Shown in pieces: positions 21,153 to 47,643 of a stretch of 64,000 nucleotides of DNA. Where the stretch lies: the NCBI GenBank assembly GCA_902802355.1, contig CADCLU010000006.1, positions 31,759-95,758 on the forward strand. Reading direction: 5' to 3'. A program made the translations under genes and the position numbers. Origin of the DNA: an uncultured Erysipelotrichaceae bacterium (GTDB lineage Bacteria; Bacillota_I; Bacilli_A; RFN20; CAG-826). The first letter of the stretch is position 1. Every line of letters starts with the position of its first letter. The notes under the pieces are model-generated. The model was not told the DNA's origin, ran no database searches, and saw nothing but the letters and a program-made list of their open reading frames with translations.

Positions 21153-21185
21153 AATATCTATATAGTGTCGAAACGCAGTTTTTTC

Positions 21186-21222
21186 ACAAAAAAAATAAAA
21201 AGAGCCACATTTTTATGGCTCT
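21186..21222 (-). terminator. Rho-independent terminator after the yneF-like gene
   Basis: Stem AGAGCCA / TGGCTCT, with a long U-run on the minus strand. Confidence 0.8.
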
Positions 21223-21238
21223 TAGTTTTTTAAGAAAT

Positions 21239-22078: not shown

Positions 22079-22717
22079 CTACCTTTTTAGGCTCTTTAGA
22101 TACGGATTTAGACGCAATTCGTCCCCAATTGTGGTTGCTGGACCGTGCCCAGGATAGACTTTTGTCTCTGGTGGCAGGACGATCAGTTTCTTCAAGCTGC
22201 TCTCGAGGGTTCTTGGGCTTCCGGTGAGCAAATCAGTACGACCAACGCTTAGATGGAAGAGGGTGTCTCCGGAGAAGAGAACATGCTCATCTTCGAAATA
22301 GAAACAGGAGCTTCCCCTTGTGTGGAATGGGGTGTGGATGACTTTGATCCTGTATTTCCCAATGTTTAGGATATCCCCATCGATGAACAATACGGTTTTG
22401 AGTCCACGAATATAGAGGTTATCGAGGAAATCGAGCGATAAATTGTAGGCGGGTTCGACCAAGAATTCCTCTTCGAGGAGGTGGACATAGACAGGTGCTT
22501 TCATGGTGCAAAGCCTTAAGCCTTCGATATGGTCATAGTGACCGTGCGTCAAAAGGAATCCGGCAATCTGTCCGCCATGGTGTTTGTTAACGTATTTCTC
22601 GAGGAACTGATTTGGGTCTGCTCCAGGATCGACTATTATGCAAGGCTCGCCTTCTTCACCGATGACGTAGATGTTGCAAACGTAATCGTCGCCAATGTTG
22701 AACTTCTCAATTTTCAT
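22079..22717 (-). CDS. MBL-fold metallo-hydrolase (YqgX/GloB-like)
   Basis: It has the THGHYDH motif and a downstream His/Asp pattern. Its start ATG overlaps the stop of the upstream mini-ORF (ATGA). Confidence 0.8.
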   Translation of the reverse strand: MKIEKFNIGDDYVCNIYVIGEEGEPCIIVDPGADPNQFLEKYVNKHHGGQIAGFLLTHGHYDHIEGLRLCTMKAPVYVHLLEEEFLVEPAYNLSLDFLDNLYIRGLKTVLFIDGDILNIGKYRIKVIHTPFHTRGSSCFYFEDEHVLFSGDTLFHLSVGRTDLLTGSPRTLESSLKKLIVLPPETKVYPGHGPATTIGDELRLNPYLKSLKR

Positions 22718-22863
22718 AAAAAAAATAAGGCTTGAGCCTTATTTATTTGCTTCATTTTTTCCATCTTGTTAGGATGAAGCTTCTTATTGCGGTCGGTAAT
22801 ATAATTGTGCTCTCCGCATTCGGTGCAGGCAAGAATCACTTGATCACGTTTGCTGATGGCCAT
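22714..22863 (-). CDS. Unannotated 49-aa ORF, ribosomal protein L33-like with a divergent C-terminus
   Basis: The translation is MAISKRDQVILACTECGEHNYITDRNKKLHPNKMEKMKQINKAQALFFL. The N-terminal 38 aa fit the L33 signature (LACTEC..RNY.T..N....P..ME..K), but the second CxxC and the H.ETK end are absent. SD GAGGGG lies 9 nt upstream. The ORF is below the track's length cut-off. Confidence 0.55.
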   Translation of the reverse strand: MAISKRDQVILACTECGEHNYITDRNKKLHPNKMEKMKQINKAQALFFL

Positions 22864-25428: not shown

Positions 25429-26301
25429 ATGAAGGTTTCAGTAATAAATCCCCATGGGTTCTGTGCGGGAGTCCAAATGGCTCTCGACTGCGCTTACAAA
25501 GCGAAAGAAGAACACTCAGATGAGAAAATTTACATACTCGGAAACTTGGTTCACAACGAAAGAGTCATCGGCGACCTTGAGAATGATGGTTTTATCATCC
25601 TTGATGAACGCAAAAAGTCCCTTTCAGAATGGATAAAAACCCTCGAAAAGGGCGATGTTGTCGTGTTTTCAGCACATGGACACGATCCTCATCTAGATAT
25701 AGAGGCCAAAGAAAAAGGCTTAGTCGTTTATGACGCGACTTGCCCATTTGTCAAAGCCAATTCAATCCTTATCAAAAAGAGAATCTCTGAGAATGGCGAG
25801 GTCATTTTCATCGGACAAGCCGGTCATGCAGAAACTGTTGGCACACTAAAGATCGATGAAGCCAAAATTCATCTCTATGAACCTGGAAAACAATTCGATT
25901 TCAGTGCAATTCAGGTCAAAAATCCGCTTTTAGTCTCACAAACAACAATGGGAACGGATGAAATGAAAGAGTCAGTTTCCTTACTAAAAGACCATTTCGC
26001 TGAAATCGATATCGCAGCCAGGGTTTGCGATGCTACCGATAAGAGACAAAGCGCTATTTGTACTGCCCCAAACGACGTAGATCTTTATGTGGTCATGGGT
26101 TCTTCGACCAGCAACAACACCATGAAACTGCTTGGGCTTGCCAAGATCAAATATCCAAAGGCAAAAGTTATCAGATGCCTTGATCTGGACGAAATCCGCA
26201 AGATGGAATTAAGAGGTTTCAAAAACGCCGCTTTGATTAGCGGAGCATCGACTGGATTAAGGGAACTCGAAGAAGTTAAGGCCTACCTCGAAAGCTTATA
26301 A
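25429..26301 (+). CDS. ispH: HMBPP reductase IspH
   Basis: 290 aa with GFCAGV, the Cys ligand contexts and SSNT-like SSTSNNT. Confidence 0.9.
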   Translation: MKVSVINPHGFCAGVQMALDCAYKAKEEHSDEKIYILGNLVHNERVIGDLENDGFIILDERKKSLSEWIKTLEKGDVVVFSAHGHDPHLDIEAKEKGLVVYDATCPFVKANSILIKKRISENGEVIFIGQAGHAETVGTLKIDEAKIHLYEPGKQFDFSAIQVKNPLLVSQTTMGTDEMKESVSLLKDHFAEIDIAARVCDATDKRQSAICTAPNDVDLYVVMGSSTSNNTMKLLGLAKIKYPKAKVIRCLDLDEIRKMELRGFKNAALISGASTGLRELEEVKAYLESL

Positions 26302-26454
26302 AGAACCTGGATATATCAAGGGTTTATTACAAAATACCATTAGTTTGATAATAGTTTAAAATTAGTACTTTGGAACATTTTTCATTAGCGATAATAACTA
26401 ATCTGTTTAGTTAAATGTAATGAAAGTCTAATAAATGATGAAATGTGCTATTTT

Positions 26455-28632
26455 CTAGTGTTTCAATAGGGTTTTGATCTCGCTGATCTCAACCCCTAAC
26501 TCCCCTGCTTTCGGGGAATCTGCTGATAATGAGCTTCTTATCTTCTCAAGAATCTGCAATTGTTTCTCGTAATATTGTTTCCAAGCCTTGTTTGGGTGCT
26601 TTACGTTGAAATACCCATACTTCTTCTCAAGCGGAGAGTAATTGGGTTCCTTTTCGGACTTCTTCCACCGCATTATGTCGTATGGTTTACCTTTGTCGAT
26701 GAGGAAATGACCCTTTTCAATTTCATAACCTAGTGAAATCAGGGTTTCATAGACGATATCTAGATCAGTATGCGCATCAATAACGATATATTGGACATTC
26801 TCTAATCTTTCTTTATGGCTAGTCAAAATTTCGGAAATTAGCCTTCCACCCATACCGGCTAGTACAACCGTATCGCAACGCGGATCGAGTTTTTCGATTC
26901 CGTTACTCAAGGAATAAGAGATCTTATCCTCTAGCCCCGCATCCTTGATTGCCTTAACCATTCGACTATAAGGCCCTTCTTTGTTATCGACTGCAAACGC
27001 ACCTTCTATGAGGTTTTGCTCGCAAAGGAAAATCGGAAGCAAACAATGGTCGCTTCCGATATCCGCGATGAAAGAGCCTGGAACGATGAATTCCGCTAAC
27101 TTTAAGAGTCTGTTAGAATAGGCGTCTTGATAATCGCCGAGTCTCTTGGCTCTCGTTGGATGGCGGAGCTTTCTGATGGCTTTGGCCTCAATCTGGCGGA
27201 TACGCTCACGAGTGACGCCGAATTCTTTTCCGACTTCCTCAAGGGTCCTTGGACGGTTGTCATCGAGACCATAACGAAGCCTGAGAACTCTTTCCTCACG
27301 ATCGGTCAAATCGTGCATGATTTCGTATAATTCATCCTTCAAAAGGGACTTTGTGGTGAACTCTTCTGGGGATTGAACCTCTTTATCCTCGATGAAATCG
27401 CCAAGGTGGGAATCGTCTTCCTCGCCGATTGGGGTTTCAAGGGAAACAGGTTCTAAGGCGATGCGCTGAATCTCACGGATTCTCTCTGGGGTGAGAGCGC
27501 CTTCCATCTTCTTACTGATTTCCTCTGGTGTTGGATCTCTGCCAAGCTCTTGGACAAGCTGGCGCTGAACCCTGGTCATCTTGTTGATGGTTTCGACCAT
27601 GTGTACTGGGATACGGATGGTTCTAGCCTGGTCAGCAATAGCACGGGTGATGGCCTGACGGATCCACCAAGTTGCATAGGTTGAGAACTTGAAACCTTTG
27701 GTGTAATCGAATTTTTCGACAGCCTTGATGAGACCCATATTGCCTTCCTGAATCAAATCAAGGAAGTGCATTCCACGGCCGACATAGTGTTTGGCGATGG
27801 CGATGACAAGACGGAGGTTGGCGGTAATCAAACGGTTCTTCGCGGTGATGCCTTCGTCAGCTTCGTATTTAAGGCCTCTCAAATCAGCTTCAAGCTTACG
27901 GGACTCCATATCATAGTTAAGGCCTTCGCCTTCGCATTTCTCTTTGAGAGCAGCGAGCTCTTCGTCTTTATGGCCGATGCGCTTATCGTATTGTTCCTTG
28001 GCGGCCTCACCACGTTTGATAGTCTCAGCAAGTTCGGTTTCCTCTTTGGCGGTAAGCAAGCGGACTTTGCCGATCTCTTTGAGGTACATCTTGACGGAGT
28101 CGTTGACTTTAACATCGCCAGATTGGACTCTGGCGAACTCGTCAATCGCGCTGTCATCGATGTTTGCGATCTCTTGGTCGGCTTCATCGATATCTTCGTC
28201 GATGATTTCTTCTTCAGCCTCACGGTTGGCCTTCTCAAGGTCATCCAAGGATGGGCCGATATCATCGGATCCGGCTTCTTCTTCGTCGGTAATGACTTTG
28301 ATTTTGTTTTCGTTGAAGAAAGAGATAAGGGTTTCGAGGTCGTTCTCGCTGATATCTTGTTTGGCGGCGACGTCCATAAGTTCCTCTTGGCTGATGGAAC
28401 CACTGGATTTGGCCTTCTTCATGAATTGCTTCTTGATGGCCTCTAAAGCTTTCTCGACGCTAGAATCTTCGTTGTCGTCGATATCGACATCGTTAAAGCC
28501 GGTGTCAAAAGACTCGAAAAGGTCATCATCGGCCTTCTTTTTGCTGGCTTTCTTGGCTGGTTTGTCTTCTTTCTTAGCCTTTTTCGCCTTCTTGGTTTCT
28601 TCGGCGACTTCTTTGTTTTCTTTCTTTGGCAT
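26455..28632 (-). CDS. sigA: In-frame fusion: primary sigma factor SigA/RpoD + tRNA (adenine22-N1)-methyltransferase TrmK
   Basis: Sigma-70 regions 1.2 to 4.2 are complete ([42 protein letters not shown]). With no stop codon, the ORF continues after RLGDYQDAY into a TrmK fold ([20 protein letters not shown]). Confidence 0.85.
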
Positions 28633-28651
28633 GGGTCTTTCTTCCTTTCTC

Positions 28652-30475
28652 TTAGTTCTTTTTATTTCGGTTGAGACGTTCTCTTTGTCTGGCGGCGAAG
28701 TCTTTTAGCGCCGCTCCGGCTTTACGAGGATCCGTCGTAGGGTTCTTGATGGCCTTGGCGGTTTGTTCGCAATCGTAGAGCCTGTCTTTCTCATCTTTAA
28801 TGACCTTTATTACTTCTTGCATCCCTTGGTCGGAGTAAGGAGGGTAATAACGTTCGGAGGATATTTCCGTGATACGGCCGATGAGAGTGTCGGCCTCTTC
28901 GTCCGAGGCATTCTCGATGTCGTTGATAAGCAATGGCAACGTAACGCTTTCTTTTCGCGACTCTTGGTAATCGACGATGTAGTTAGCGATCGAGTTATAG
29001 ACCGATGTGTAGAAATTACCGACCTCATCCTCGAAGTACTTAACGGCTTTCATCTCGTTAAGCATGTAATAGAGAGCCTGTCTTTCTGCCCTCAGAAGCC
29101 TCTTTTCGATGAGTTTCTCAGGGTGGAGTCTTGAGAAGTCGAGTTCGTCTACGGCGATGCTCGTTTCCTCCTCGTCCTCTTTGCTTATGACTTTCTTATT
29201 GATTTGGATTCTGATCGCTTCCGCCTCATAGCCTGTGGCTTTTGAGAGTTTTGCGATGTAATTGTCTCGGTCTATTCCAGCTGGGACGTTACGGAGGAAC
29301 TTGATGAAGTAAAGCATGACTTTACGGCGTTCTTCCGGTGTCTCAAGCTTTTTGACGTTGAGGTAATAGTTGATTTGGAAGTCCATCGCATCGACGAGAT
29401 GTGACATGGCTTCTTTAAGGGCTTCTGGCCCGCTTTCCTGAAGAATGTCGTCAGGATCGCGAAGGTCTTTAGGATTGCTGACCAGACGATAAGGCAAACC
29501 GGCGGCATTGAGCTGGGTGATGATCTTCATCATGCCGATCTGGCCGGCATTATCACCGTCAAGGCAGAGTCTGATTTCACAGTTGAGTTTCCTCAAAAGT
29601 GCGATTTGGTCGGCAGATAACGCAGTTCCCATGAGAGCGACTGCGCTAGATATGCCAGCCTTATCGAGGGCCATGACATCCATGAATCCTTCAAGGACAT
29701 AGACGTAACCGTCATGGCGCGCGCTACCTTTGACGTTGTGATAGTTGTAGAGAATCTTTCCTTTATGGAAGATAGGAGTCTCTGGTGAGTTGACGTATTT
29801 CGGATTCTGCTCTTCGCTGAGTTTTCTGGCGCTGAAACCGACGACTTGGCCATTAGGGTCGCATAACGGGAAGATAAGTCTTCCGGCATTGGCGTCTTTG
29901 GCGTTCGCGCTGGCTAAAGCGATGCCGATATCCTCAATCGATTTGAGCGAATGCCCATGGGCAAGAAGGAATTCAATCGTCTTTCTTCCATCTGATAAGG
30001 AATAGCCAATCTTGTATTTCTTGACCTGGGCATCATCGATATTCCTTTTGGCTAAATAGTCTTTGGCTATCTTGCCCTCAGGGATATTGAGGTCGTATTC
30101 GTAGAATTTTTGAAGATCGTTGATGCAGTTATATAAAGGCTGAATGGTCGGGTCTTTCTTTGGAACAAAGGCCTCTTTTATGAGTCTTTCGTCATGGAAG
30201 CCGACGATATCGGCTACCTTGCGAACTGCCTCATTGTAGGAAATCTTCTCGTATTTGGAGACGAATGTGATGGCGTTTCCAGCCGTTCCGCAGACAAAGC
30301 ATTTGAAGATCTGCCTTTCTGGGGAGATGGACAAGCTAGGATGTTTGTCATCATGAAAAGGACAAAGGGCCATGTAGTTGCGACCCTTTTTGGTAACCGG
30401 GATGTAAGCCTTGATGACATCGACGATATCGGTTTGGGCCAATAACGCTGCGATGAGTTCAGGTGAATAAGCCAT
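28652..30475 (-). CDS. dnaG: DNA primase
   Basis: It has the zinc finger [13 protein letters not shown]...CFVCG and a Toprim domain (EGFMDV...DGDNAG). Confidence 0.92.
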
Positions 30476-30497
30476 CGATTGCCTCCTTTAAGCGGTC

Positions 30498-31877
30498 TTA
30501 GAATACGAATTTCTCTTCAAAGTATTTGACGAGTTCATCGATAGGCATGCGGATTTGCTGCATGGTATCGCGATCACGGATGGTGACGGTGTTGTTCTCA
30601 AGTGTATCGAAGTCAACGGTGACACAGAATGGGGTTCCGATTTCGTCCTGGCGGCGATAACGCTTGCCGATTGAACCGGTGACGTCATAGGTGACTTGGA
30701 AGTGTTTATTGAGGACGGAGAGAACCTCTTTGGATTTCTCTTCGAGTTTCTTGGATAAAGGAAGAACGGCGACTTTGTATGGGGCAAGAGCTGGGTTGAT
30801 GTGCATGACGGTACGGACATCTCCACCTTCTAAAGCCTCTTCGTCGTAGCTATCCATAAGGACCATGAGGATGAGTCGGTCAAGACCCATGGATGGTTCG
30901 ATGACGTAAGGGATGTATTTCTCGTTGGTCTCAGGATCGAAATAGCTCATATCCTCTTTGCTATATTCCTGATGGCGCTTCAAATCGTAGTCGGTTCTAT
31001 CGGCGACACCGAGGATTTCTCCCCAACCGAGATCCGGGAAATCGTACTCAACATCGGTGGTTGCTTTGGAGTAGAAAGCAAGCTCGGCTGGCTCATGGTC
31101 GCGGAAACGGAGGTTCTCGGCTTTCGGTCCGAGGCTCTCGACGAACTTAAGGCAGTAGTCTTTCCAGTAAGCGAACCACTCAAGGTCGGTTCCTGGCTTG
31201 CAGAAGAATTCCATTTCCATCTGATCGAATTCACGGATACGGAAAGTGAAGTTCCCTGGGGTAATTTCATTACGGAAGCTCTTACCAGTCTGGCAGATGC
31301 CGAACGGGAGTTTCTTTCTTTGGGTACGCTGGACGTTCTTGAAGTTGACGAAGACGCCTTGAGCGGTCTCTGGACGGAGATAGACGACGCTGCTGCTGTC
31401 TTCGGTGACACCAATGTGAGTCTTGAACATCATGTTGAACTTACGGATTGGGGTGAAATCGGCCTTTCCGCAAACTGGGCACTTAACCTCGTGCTCTTTG
31501 ATGAACTGATCCATCTGCTCGAAGGTCATGTTGTCGACATCGGCATCTGGGAACTCGGATTTGATGAGTTCATCGGCACGGTGACGGGCTTTGCAAGCCT
31601 TGCAGTCGACCATTGGATCATTGAAGGTGGTAACGTGTCCGGTAGCTTCCCAAACGCGTGGATTCATGAGGATACCAGCATCGATGCCGACGTTGGTTGG
31701 GGATTCCTGAACGAATCTCTTCCACCAGGCCTCACGAATGTTCTTCTTGATCTCGGCGCCTAAAGGACCATAATCCCAGCTGTTCGATAAGCCTCCATAT
31801 ATCTGTGAACCTTGAAAAACATAACCCGTCTGTTGGAGATGGGTAGTAATTTTCTCAAATGAATACTTATTTGCCAT
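30498..31877 (-). CDS. glyQS: Glycyl-tRNA synthetase (single-chain, homodimeric alpha2 type)
   Basis: 459 aa containing [13 protein letters not shown]...WDYGPLG and class II motifs. Confidence 0.92.
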
Positions 31878-34073: not shown

Positions 34074-35281
34074 TTATCTTGAACCTTCTTTTTTGACAAA
34101 ATTCTCACAGAAATAGACGTACGCCCTTTGTCGGTCGCACCTGTTCTCGAAGAAATTGAGGAGAGACCTTATTCCTTGACCAAGGCCTAAGAGGCCAAAG
34201 AAATGGAAAAGGAAGTAATTAATGGTGAGGTTGTCACTCATTAAGGCTGGGATAAAAGCCAAGCCAATTGCCACTGCCATATAGATGATCTGGATGTATG
34301 TGGCCCCTTCGCCAATTTGAAAAGCTTCGTTGTTGATGTTGGCCATTTTCTTGAGCTGTTCGTGGATGGAATCCCTTCCTTTTAGAAGGCTTTCCTCGGC
34401 AATCACGAGCTCTTCCTTCTTCTTAACCGCCTTCTTCCTGAATATCTGGCTTTCGAGTGCAAGATAGACGGTCAAGCCAATTGCGGAAACATAGAAAATG
34501 GGTCATTCAAACCAAAGAGGAAAGACAGGCCAAAGACCACGCTTATGCCTTCGATAACGGACATAACCGCAGGGAATGTTGAGCTCTTGAAAGCGTAGTA
34601 ACGCTCGTAATTCTTAGCCAGCTTCTTTTTAGATGTTGAAGGGACGCACTTAAGCCATTTCTTATCAAACCTTTTGCTGAAGAATCCGCTGATCAGTCTT
34701 GAGCCAACACTCAAAAGACCATAAAGCGCCAAAAGGGCTGCGGTTAGGATATACGAATCCTCTTTTCCTAATAAATATAGAGCGAAGTATAGTGCAGTTA
34801 TTCCTAGGAGCGAGGAAATCGCGCTCAAAAAGAAACCCGTCTTAGGAAATATCTTCGGCTTCGAATAAGGACAATTCTCCTCGCTGAAAAGAACAGCTTC
34901 GCCGTAGATGCAGGAGAACCTCTTCACCACCTCCTCTTTCTTGATCCATTTCTTGCCAATAGCTGGATCATAAACGAGGAAACGGTCTTTCCTGGCTTTT
35001 CTTAGATAGACTAAATGCCCTTTCCCATCTCCTTTTAGGAGAATCAGCAAAGGAAACGTCGTAGCGGTCAGCAAATCTTCCTCCTTTAAGCAGCGCTTCC
35101 ACTGAATGTCGACGCCTTCTTTGAAAGCCATCTGTCGGATGTCTTCTAGCGAAAGATCCTCCTCCTTTTCGGAAGTCAGGTATCGGTAGCCTTTTTTCTT
35201 GGTCAAATCCAAGAGGAGCATTTTGAGGCTGGCAAGGCCACAGCCTTCCTCATCTCCCTGATAAACAAAAATTCCCATCAC
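34074..35281 (-). pseudogene. C39 (bacteriocin-processing) peptidase domain + ABC-exporter-like membrane domain, no ATPase domain, split by a 1-nt frameshift near 34490
   Basis: The N-terminus has YQGDEEGCGLASLKML (C39 Q/Cys motif) and GHLVYL...VYDPAIG (His/Asp), followed by TM helices. ORF 34472-35281 and ORF 34074-34475 join into one reading frame (..LFGLNDP|IFYVSAIGLTVYLAL..) if one base is added at the run CCCATTTT. The total span is 1208 nt, which is 3n+2. Confidence 0.6.
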
Positions 35282-47291: not shown

Positions 47292-47296
47292 AGCTA

Positions 47297-47643
47297 TTAT
47301 TTGTCTTCTTTTTCTTCGAAGGCGGCAGCTTCTTCAGGGTGCTCTTCGGCGTAGCGTCTCATGGCCTCGGCAGTAGCTTCATCAGCGACTTCTTCGGTAG
47401 CACGGGAAACTTCTTCTTCGGCGACTTCATCTGTTCAAGAGTGGCTTCGTCGGTGATGTCGGTGACAAGGCGATTGACCTCTTCTTCCGCGATCTCTTTA
47501 TCGCTCTTTGGCTTTTCCTGGTTCTGGAACGGTTTCACGTATTTCTTAACGAGAATGACTCCTAAAACGATGATGCCGAAAAACACGACAAGAGCGATTG
47601 TTATGAATAATGGGCTTTCAAAAAAGCTGGCGTAAAGTCTCAT
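47297..47643 (-). pseudogene. Small single-TM protein with an acidic tail, interrupted by a 1-nt frameshift near 47432
   Basis: The track ORF 47359-47643 turns from acidic (EIAEEEVNRLVTDITDEATLE) to basic nonsense. Another frame continues as TDEVAEEEVSRATEEVADEATAEAMRRYAEEHPEEAAAFEEKEDK and stops 6 nt before hemW. The span is 347 nt, which is 3n+2. The shift falls at GAACA, where GAAACA would be expected. Confidence 0.55.

Follow-up and report, generated by a model that had tools for sequence, protein, structure and literature searches.

The 64,000-nt window analyzed here belongs to contig CADCLU010000006.1 of an uncultured rumen bacterium from an Erysipelotrichales-like lineage of the Bacilli (the "Bacilli bacterium" metagenome-assembled genomes, or MAGs). 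It contains a single open reading frame (ORF) in which the primary sigma factor SigA continues in frame into the tRNA methyltransferase TrmK. Comparison with other assemblies of the same organism shows that this ORF differs from the usual arrangement by an exact 73-nt deletion, that the deletion is private to one contig, and that the contig is a mosaic of strains carrying further private lesions, two of which lie at switches between haplotypes. The sigma–TrmK fusion is not an evolved protein architecture; sigA and trmK are separate genes, 19 nt apart, in this organism. We put the probability that the fused ORF stems from a local error of assembly or consensus in a mosaic MAG contig at about 0.7, and the contig's other lesions make a technical origin the most likely one for the 73-nt deletion itself.

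Domain content of the fused reading frame

The ORF listing of the window gives one ORF on the minus strand (26455–28632, 725 aa, ATG start) that holds both a sigma factor and TrmK. This is what the original prediction had claimed, and Pfam and NCBIfam bear it out; the strand is added here. Sigma70 regions 1.1, 1.2, 2, 3 and 4 span residues 64–491. The match to region 1.1 is marginal (22.1 bits against a Pfam cut-off of 22.5), while the models for regions 1.2, 2, 3 and 4 are matched above their cut-offs and in order, which is the domain content of a group 1 sigma-70 factor. Among the NCBIfam models, TIGR02393 (RpoD_Cterm) reaches 396 bits, above its cut-off of 354, and the full-length equivalog NF006666 scores 511, under its cut-off of 572. 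The RpoD models are matched up to their final positions, which fall at residues 502–504.

The sigma factor had been described as complete. This is correct for its regions, from the marginal 1.1 through 4, but 13 residues present at the C-terminus of its relatives are missing: the native end, in which QDAYYPEGPDTHSKGNK is followed by a stop, is not found, and TrmK stands in place of the tail YPEGPDTHSKGNK. The relatives compared (P0001–P0008) are sigma-only proteins of 458–521 aa that carry the tail. This extension of about 13 residues past region 4.2, reading YPEGPDTHSKGNK or ending in ETHKKN, is a conserved feature of the primary sigma factor in the rumen clade, seen in the comparison contig L001 (7517–7557), at loci L002–L004 and in proteins P0001–P0003 and P0006–P0008. 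Other Bacilli are without it, and their sigma factor stops a few residues past RLGDY/LKDF. At the opposite end of the protein, residues 1–57 (28460–28632) form a lysine-rich and then strongly acidic low-complexity segment ahead of region 1.1, which is predicted to be disordered (predicted local distance difference test, pLDDT, about 25–30) and varies in length among relatives.

Residues 506–706 match TrmK (PF04816, E = 2.8e-37; 128.7 bits against a cut-off of 27) and Methyltransf_18 (PF12847), and the class I S-adenosylmethionine (SAM)-binding motifs DIGSDH and AGMGG can be read in this part. By these sequence features it is a member of the tRNA (adenine22-N1)-methyltransferase family, with the corresponding predicted activity. 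The claim of a full methyltransferase holds for the domain and its motifs but not for the first four residues, MKRL, which are missing; the part is otherwise identical to a free-standing 224-aa protein (P0128). It matches the solved TrmK chains 3LEC, 3KR9, 7O4M and 6Q56 starting at their residues 3–8, so that the join sits at the very start of the TrmK fold.

Modeling of the chimera, proposed earlier as a way of judging its fit to the holoenzyme, gave a divided result. In the AlphaFold2 model the TrmK part is predicted with confidence (pLDDT ~90, with C-terminal helices at residues 682–724). The sigma part, for which the alignment was shallow, has low confidence, and residues 490–504 (pLDDT <50) are drawn as a single helix that leads from the tail of sigma into helix 1 of TrmK. 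With sigma and junction both modeled at low confidence, the model makes no reliable statement on compatibility with the holoenzyme.

The junction is an exact 73-nt deletion

In the comparison contig L001 (ENA ERZ27257205), sigA is followed by a 19-nt spacer and then by a separate trmK gene encoding 224 aa. When the window is aligned to this DNA, a single clean gap of 73 nt appears, with matching sequence around it. The missing nucleotides comprise the final 13 codons of sigA with its stop, all of the 19-nt spacer, and the trmK ATG with three more codons (together MKRL). The sigA and trmK frames differ by one base and 73 = 3 × 24 + 1, so the deletion brings the two frames into register. The suggestion that a deletion had fused two operon neighbors therefore stands, as these 73 nt are missing relative to conspecific contigs in which the genes are separate.

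The junction lies between residue 505 (codon 27118–27120) and residue 506 (window 27118|27117). The short microhomology found there, CTAT, belongs to an imperfect repeat, AAGACGCCTAT / AAGACTAT (AAGAC..TAT). As a marker of the fused form we used the 28-mer that spans the junction, ATCAAGACGCCTATTCTAACAGACTCTT, where the intact boundaries read ...GACGCCTATTACCCAGAGG... and ...GAAAAGACTATCTAACAGAC...; it has zero exact matches in genome and metagenome contig collections.

Start codons around the junction are placed as the original prediction had described them, with no ATG, GTG or TTG at the join and the first methionine well inside the methyltransferase fold. Upstream, the nearest canonical starts in frame are ATG439 and TTG442. 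The next one on the downstream side is TTG531, which already lies beyond the DIGSDH SAM motif, and an ATG is not reached until residue 558. Between TTG442 and TTG531 the frame offers no more than the rare starts ATC and ATT. A hidden separate start for TrmK was rejected, since no in-frame ATG, GTG or TTG lies between residues 442 and 531. A scan of 26200–30700 for promoters and terminators returned sites no more numerous than in shuffled sequence, and Rfam and tRNA scans of the window found nothing. In a tblastn search of the window, the fused locus was the sole match to sigA and trmK, with no second copy of either gene.

The deletion is private to one contig

The top protein match to the SigA part (P0001) is a sigma-only protein of 518 aa, ~99.6% identical to it, and the C-terminal tail of this protein recurs in relatives at 77–92% identity. 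We compared the window with 11 other conspecific contigs, comprising 10 that were fetched of the 11 carrying the P0128 protein, plus L001, which has a slightly different TrmK allele. All 11, from 11 assemblies, carry the 73 nt and have the intact two-gene form; the fused form was found in 0 of the 121 loci fetched. The closest comparisons are with nearly identical DNA. ENA scaffold_326 (ERZ28613015) is 99.84–99.98% identical to the window around the sigA–trmK locus, and three Logan contigs of run ERR3201417 show 2 mismatches to the window in 21.1 kb. One of the latter (L087) spans the sigA–trmK site, the only one of the four lesions described below that the ERR3201417 comparison covers, and it has the intact two-gene form. 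The 73-nt deletion is thus present in one assembly, and assemblies nearly identical to it are intact.

Protein clusters give the same picture. At 90% identity the fused protein belongs to a cluster of 119 members, where it links sigma proteins to TrmK proteins. No 725-aa protein other than that of the window appears among the 15 members listed; it is found on 1 contig (120,845 nt, in NCBI and ENA), and the 518-aa sigma and 224-aa TrmK forms occur on up to 15 and 13 contigs, respectively.

In genes, order and strand the locus resembles the ordinary dnaG–sigA–trmK cluster of Bacilli, with which the window also has in common the neighbors glyQS, recO, era, ybeY, ispH, a DEAD helicase gene and ispG. 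It differs in lacking the 73 nt, and hence in having one ORF where the ordinary cluster has two. Most likely the locus is such an ordinary cluster, and the fusion is not a real feature of it. The proposal of a housekeeping sigma factor with a working enzymatic appendage finds no support in a deletion confined to a single contig.

Other private lesions and the haplotype mosaic

For comparison with the window, we stitched together 66.7 kb of scaffold_326 out of four loci that had been fetched. Over 62.2 kb of alignment there are 104 mismatches and four deletions found only in the window, of 73, 52, 41 and 1 nt. All four lie inside genes (Table 1), a density of about one lesion per 15–20 kb, and no comparable insertion in the opposite direction was seen in the same alignment. 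The 41-nt deletion shortens the ribosomal protein L33 encoded by rpmG from 53 to 49 aa, with loss of the second CxxC (zinc-knuckle) pair, and its site is intact in 10 other distinct contigs. The site of the 52-nt deletion, which frameshifts a hypothetical gene, is intact in 2 other distinct contigs.

The mismatches are strongly clustered. Forty fall at 34299–34491, beside the 1-nt deletion, and 13 at 47294–47417, beside the 52-nt deletion; outside divergent patches there are only about 31 single-nucleotide polymorphisms (SNPs). As the majority of SNPs belong to genes that are truncated or unlisted, a count of synonymous and nonsynonymous changes would be misleading, and we inspected the positions of the SNPs instead. 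In both patches nearly all of them share one codon position, and in the patch at the 52-nt deletion it corresponds to third positions when the intact frame is read, and not when the window's present frame is.

Probing of the flanks showed that the window switches haplotype exactly at the 1-nt and 52-nt lesions. Upstream of both, it is 100% identical to scaffold_326. Downstream, its identity to scaffold_326 is only 81% at the 1-nt lesion and 90% at the 52-nt lesion, and it instead matches two contigs of ERZ27280754, at 100% (L113, 1-nt lesion) and 97.8% (L110, 52-nt lesion). Both parental haplotypes are intact at the two sites. Precise homologous recombination would lose no bases at the crossover, and with both parents intact the pattern is that of an error at the joins. 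The contig is a mosaic of strains in which chimeric joins account for two of the four lesions; lesions placed at haplotype switches point to local assembly error.

Two further stretches of the window differ from scaffold_326. At 27706–27751, a non-conserved part of sigA between regions 1.2 and 2, six SNPs occur in 45 nt, and the window is nearest to another contig (L088, 98.8%), with identity to scaffold_326 down at 92.6%; a further small haplotype patch or a recombination tract may lie here. In intergenic DNA at 21174–21230 and 21448, the window and scaffold_326 are separated by 14 SNPs and three indels of 1 nt, and the same stretch differs from L001 in the copy number of a 6-nt tandem unit (GGTTGA).

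Table 1 Features of the fused locus and of the other lesions in the window.
Feature	Position	Strand	Basis or remark
sigA–trmK in-frame fused ORF, as deposited	26455..28632	-	ORF list, Pfam, NCBIfam
SigA part, residues 1–505 (Lys/acid-rich N-terminus and regions 1.1–4.2)	27118..28632	-	Pfam, NCBIfam
TrmK part, residues 506–725 and stop	26455..27117	-	Pfam PF04816/PF12847
Deletion junction	27117..27121	.	4-nt microhomology CTAT (27118–27121); alignment and blastn break points
dnaG, upstream in the dnaG–sigA–trmK cluster, 19 nt before sigA	28652..30475	-	ORF list, comparison contig
rpmG (L33) remnant	22714..22863	-	41-nt deletion at 22750–22753; frameshift in last third
Peptidase_C39-like gene, 401 to 268 aa	34472..35278	-	1-nt deletion at 34497
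132-aa hypothetical gene, frameshifted	47359..47643	-	52-nt deletion at 47426–47428

Origin of the deletion

The three other private lesions and the mosaic nature of the contig lead us to read the 73-nt deletion as another local error. Under this explanation, a mixture of closely related strains would have been assembled into one contig, and a local error of assembly or consensus would have dropped the 73 nt that cover the end of sigA with its stop codon, the spacer, and the beginning of trmK. By chance, this loss would have set the two frames in register and so produced a single ORF. Local assembly errors are known to corrupt protein-coding sequences in MAGs and thereby public databases; 13 of them were reported from a single genome of 1.13 Mb, and the authors suspect that errors of this kind feature prominently in IDBA-UD assemblies (Chen et al. 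2020, PMC7111523). The window resembles those cases in having short lesions that break coding sequences on one contig, in a contig that mixes strains. It differs in that a local assembly error is defined by read support, where the present case is judged from assembled contigs, and in that the 73-nt lesion is without a visible haplotype switch.

Several observations weigh against an artefact. No haplotype switch is visible at the 73-nt deletion, whose flanks do not differ among the near-identical strains; for this same reason, a chimeric join at the site would not be directly visible. The 4-nt microhomology sits in an imperfect direct repeat, as it does in real deletions that arise by replication slippage. 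Assemblers that work on k-mer graphs normally need reads that contain a junction, and some molecules or reads may therefore carry this one. Finally, the result is in frame, with both domains and their motifs intact, although the case was picked for being in frame and this outcome consequently carries little weight.

A rival explanation is that one strain or subpopulation alone really lost the 73 nt, very recently and through a microhomology-mediated event, with an effect that is neutral or mildly harmful rather than adaptive. We regard this as unlikely; in its favor is the CTAT microhomology at the deletion edges inside the AAGAC..TAT repeats. The cell would tolerate the product because each module is almost whole: no sigma region or TrmK SAM motif is missing, only 13 and 4 terminal residues are lost, and the fold of TrmK begins at residues 3–8 of the solved chains. 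Elsewhere, an N-terminal His-tag has been placed on TrmK for expression (PMC9190014), and ECF41 sigma factors are a natural case of a domain fused behind region 4 (PMC3426412). The 83-kDa SigA–TrmK chimera would be both the only primary sigma factor and the only TrmK of the cell; within the window there is no second copy of either gene. TrmK is dispensable in B. subtilis and essential in S. aureus and S. pneumoniae (PMC9190014).

A real deletion would, however, have to be extremely young, as it is absent from an assembly that is almost identical in SNPs (2 mismatches in 21 kb). Three other private gene-disrupting lesions also occur within 62 kb, two of them demonstrably at chimeric haplotype joins. 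Four disruptive indels against some 31 SNPs is far above what purifying selection normally allows, and AlphaFold offers no confident linker between the two parts. It is rather doubtful that a living rumen strain has a housekeeping sigma factor, its only one, that bears a 25-kDa TrmK on region 4.2, with its only TrmK tethered to sigma and RNA polymerase. ECF41 is the closest parallel for such an arrangement, in that a folded domain follows directly after sigma region 4 and RNA polymerase binding can tolerate it (PMC3426412). The ECF41 proteins are conserved group-4 sigma factors with a regulatory extension, whereas the window joins a group-1 housekeeping sigma factor to a tRNA methyltransferase on a single contig and with no conservation.

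If it existed and worked as a protein, the fusion would provide the first case of a primary sigma factor bearing an enzymatic domain at its C-terminus, and a natural experiment showing that the interface of region 4 with the beta flap and the -35 element tolerates a bulky appendage. As a probable assembly error, it is a cautionary case. The fused ORF is deposited in NCBI and ENA and, in a large protein collection, joins sigma and TrmK proteins in one 90%-identity cluster; taken at face value it could seed false inferences of domain architecture or of "Rosetta-stone" functional links. Comparing a contig with near-identical assemblies, and looking for private lesions that coincide with haplotype switches, provides a cheap flag for such cases that needs sequence only.

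Sigma–TrmK fusions in wider searches

A third explanation is that sigma–TrmK is an evolved, selected fusion that characterizes a lineage and links transcription initiation to tRNA m1A22 methylation. The sole point in its support is the conserved, tight adjacency of sigA and trmK, which would ease fusion. We examined about 50 GTDB species representatives in which trmK directly follows sigA, among them Erysipelotrichales-like Bacilli, Haloplasmataceae, Acholeplasmatales and some Clostridia. The gap between the genes, as estimated by a first-start heuristic, is -26 to +23 nt in nearly all, and in none are the genes fused. Relatives searched for the fusion contain two separate genes without exception, both in these representatives and in the 11 conspecific contigs, an outcome that the original prediction had itself named as counting against it.

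At many of the representative loci (L005–L078), the stop and start codons of sigA and trmK overlap or nearly abut, distances of -4, -1 and +1 to +5 nt being frequent. Such tight spacing, seen in many Bacilli, Haloplasmataceae and Acholeplasmatales as well as in some Clostridia, suggests that translation of the methyltransferase is coupled to that of the housekeeping sigma factor.

Protein collections were searched with the whole fused protein and with region 4 plus TrmK as queries, using a word-indexed search over 5.8 billion clusters and an exhaustive phmmer search over 1.84 billion representatives. Apart from the protein of the window, only four sigma–TrmK hybrids were found (P0152, P0153, P0154 and P0332), all of them singletons and each with a differently defective junction. 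In P0152, P0154 and P0332, adjacent genes are merged by a frameshift in or after region 4.2, such that the spacer is read through and the trmK ATG is kept; the window differs from these in its clean in-frame deletion. P0153 is a chimera in reversed order, with the N-terminal half of TrmK followed by region 4, on a 645-nt contig. Having found the fusion to recur only as defective singletons, we rejected a conserved fusion family. With the fusion absent from all ~50 representatives and all 11 conspecific contigs, an evolved, lineage-wide fusion is extremely improbable and is in effect refuted.

The searches also returned two proteins of unusual composition. P0160 has the N-terminus of an ABC ATPase followed by sigma region 4, on a 20-kb contig in NCBI and ENA; like P0153, it is a public metagenome protein and likely an assembly chimera. 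The second-best match to the query of region 4 plus TrmK was P0207, a 938-aa protein from the representative library and from outside the window, whose unusual architecture consists of ~11 tandem helix-turn-helix modules that resemble sigma-70 region 4 (...EKIIRLRYGLD...KEIA...).

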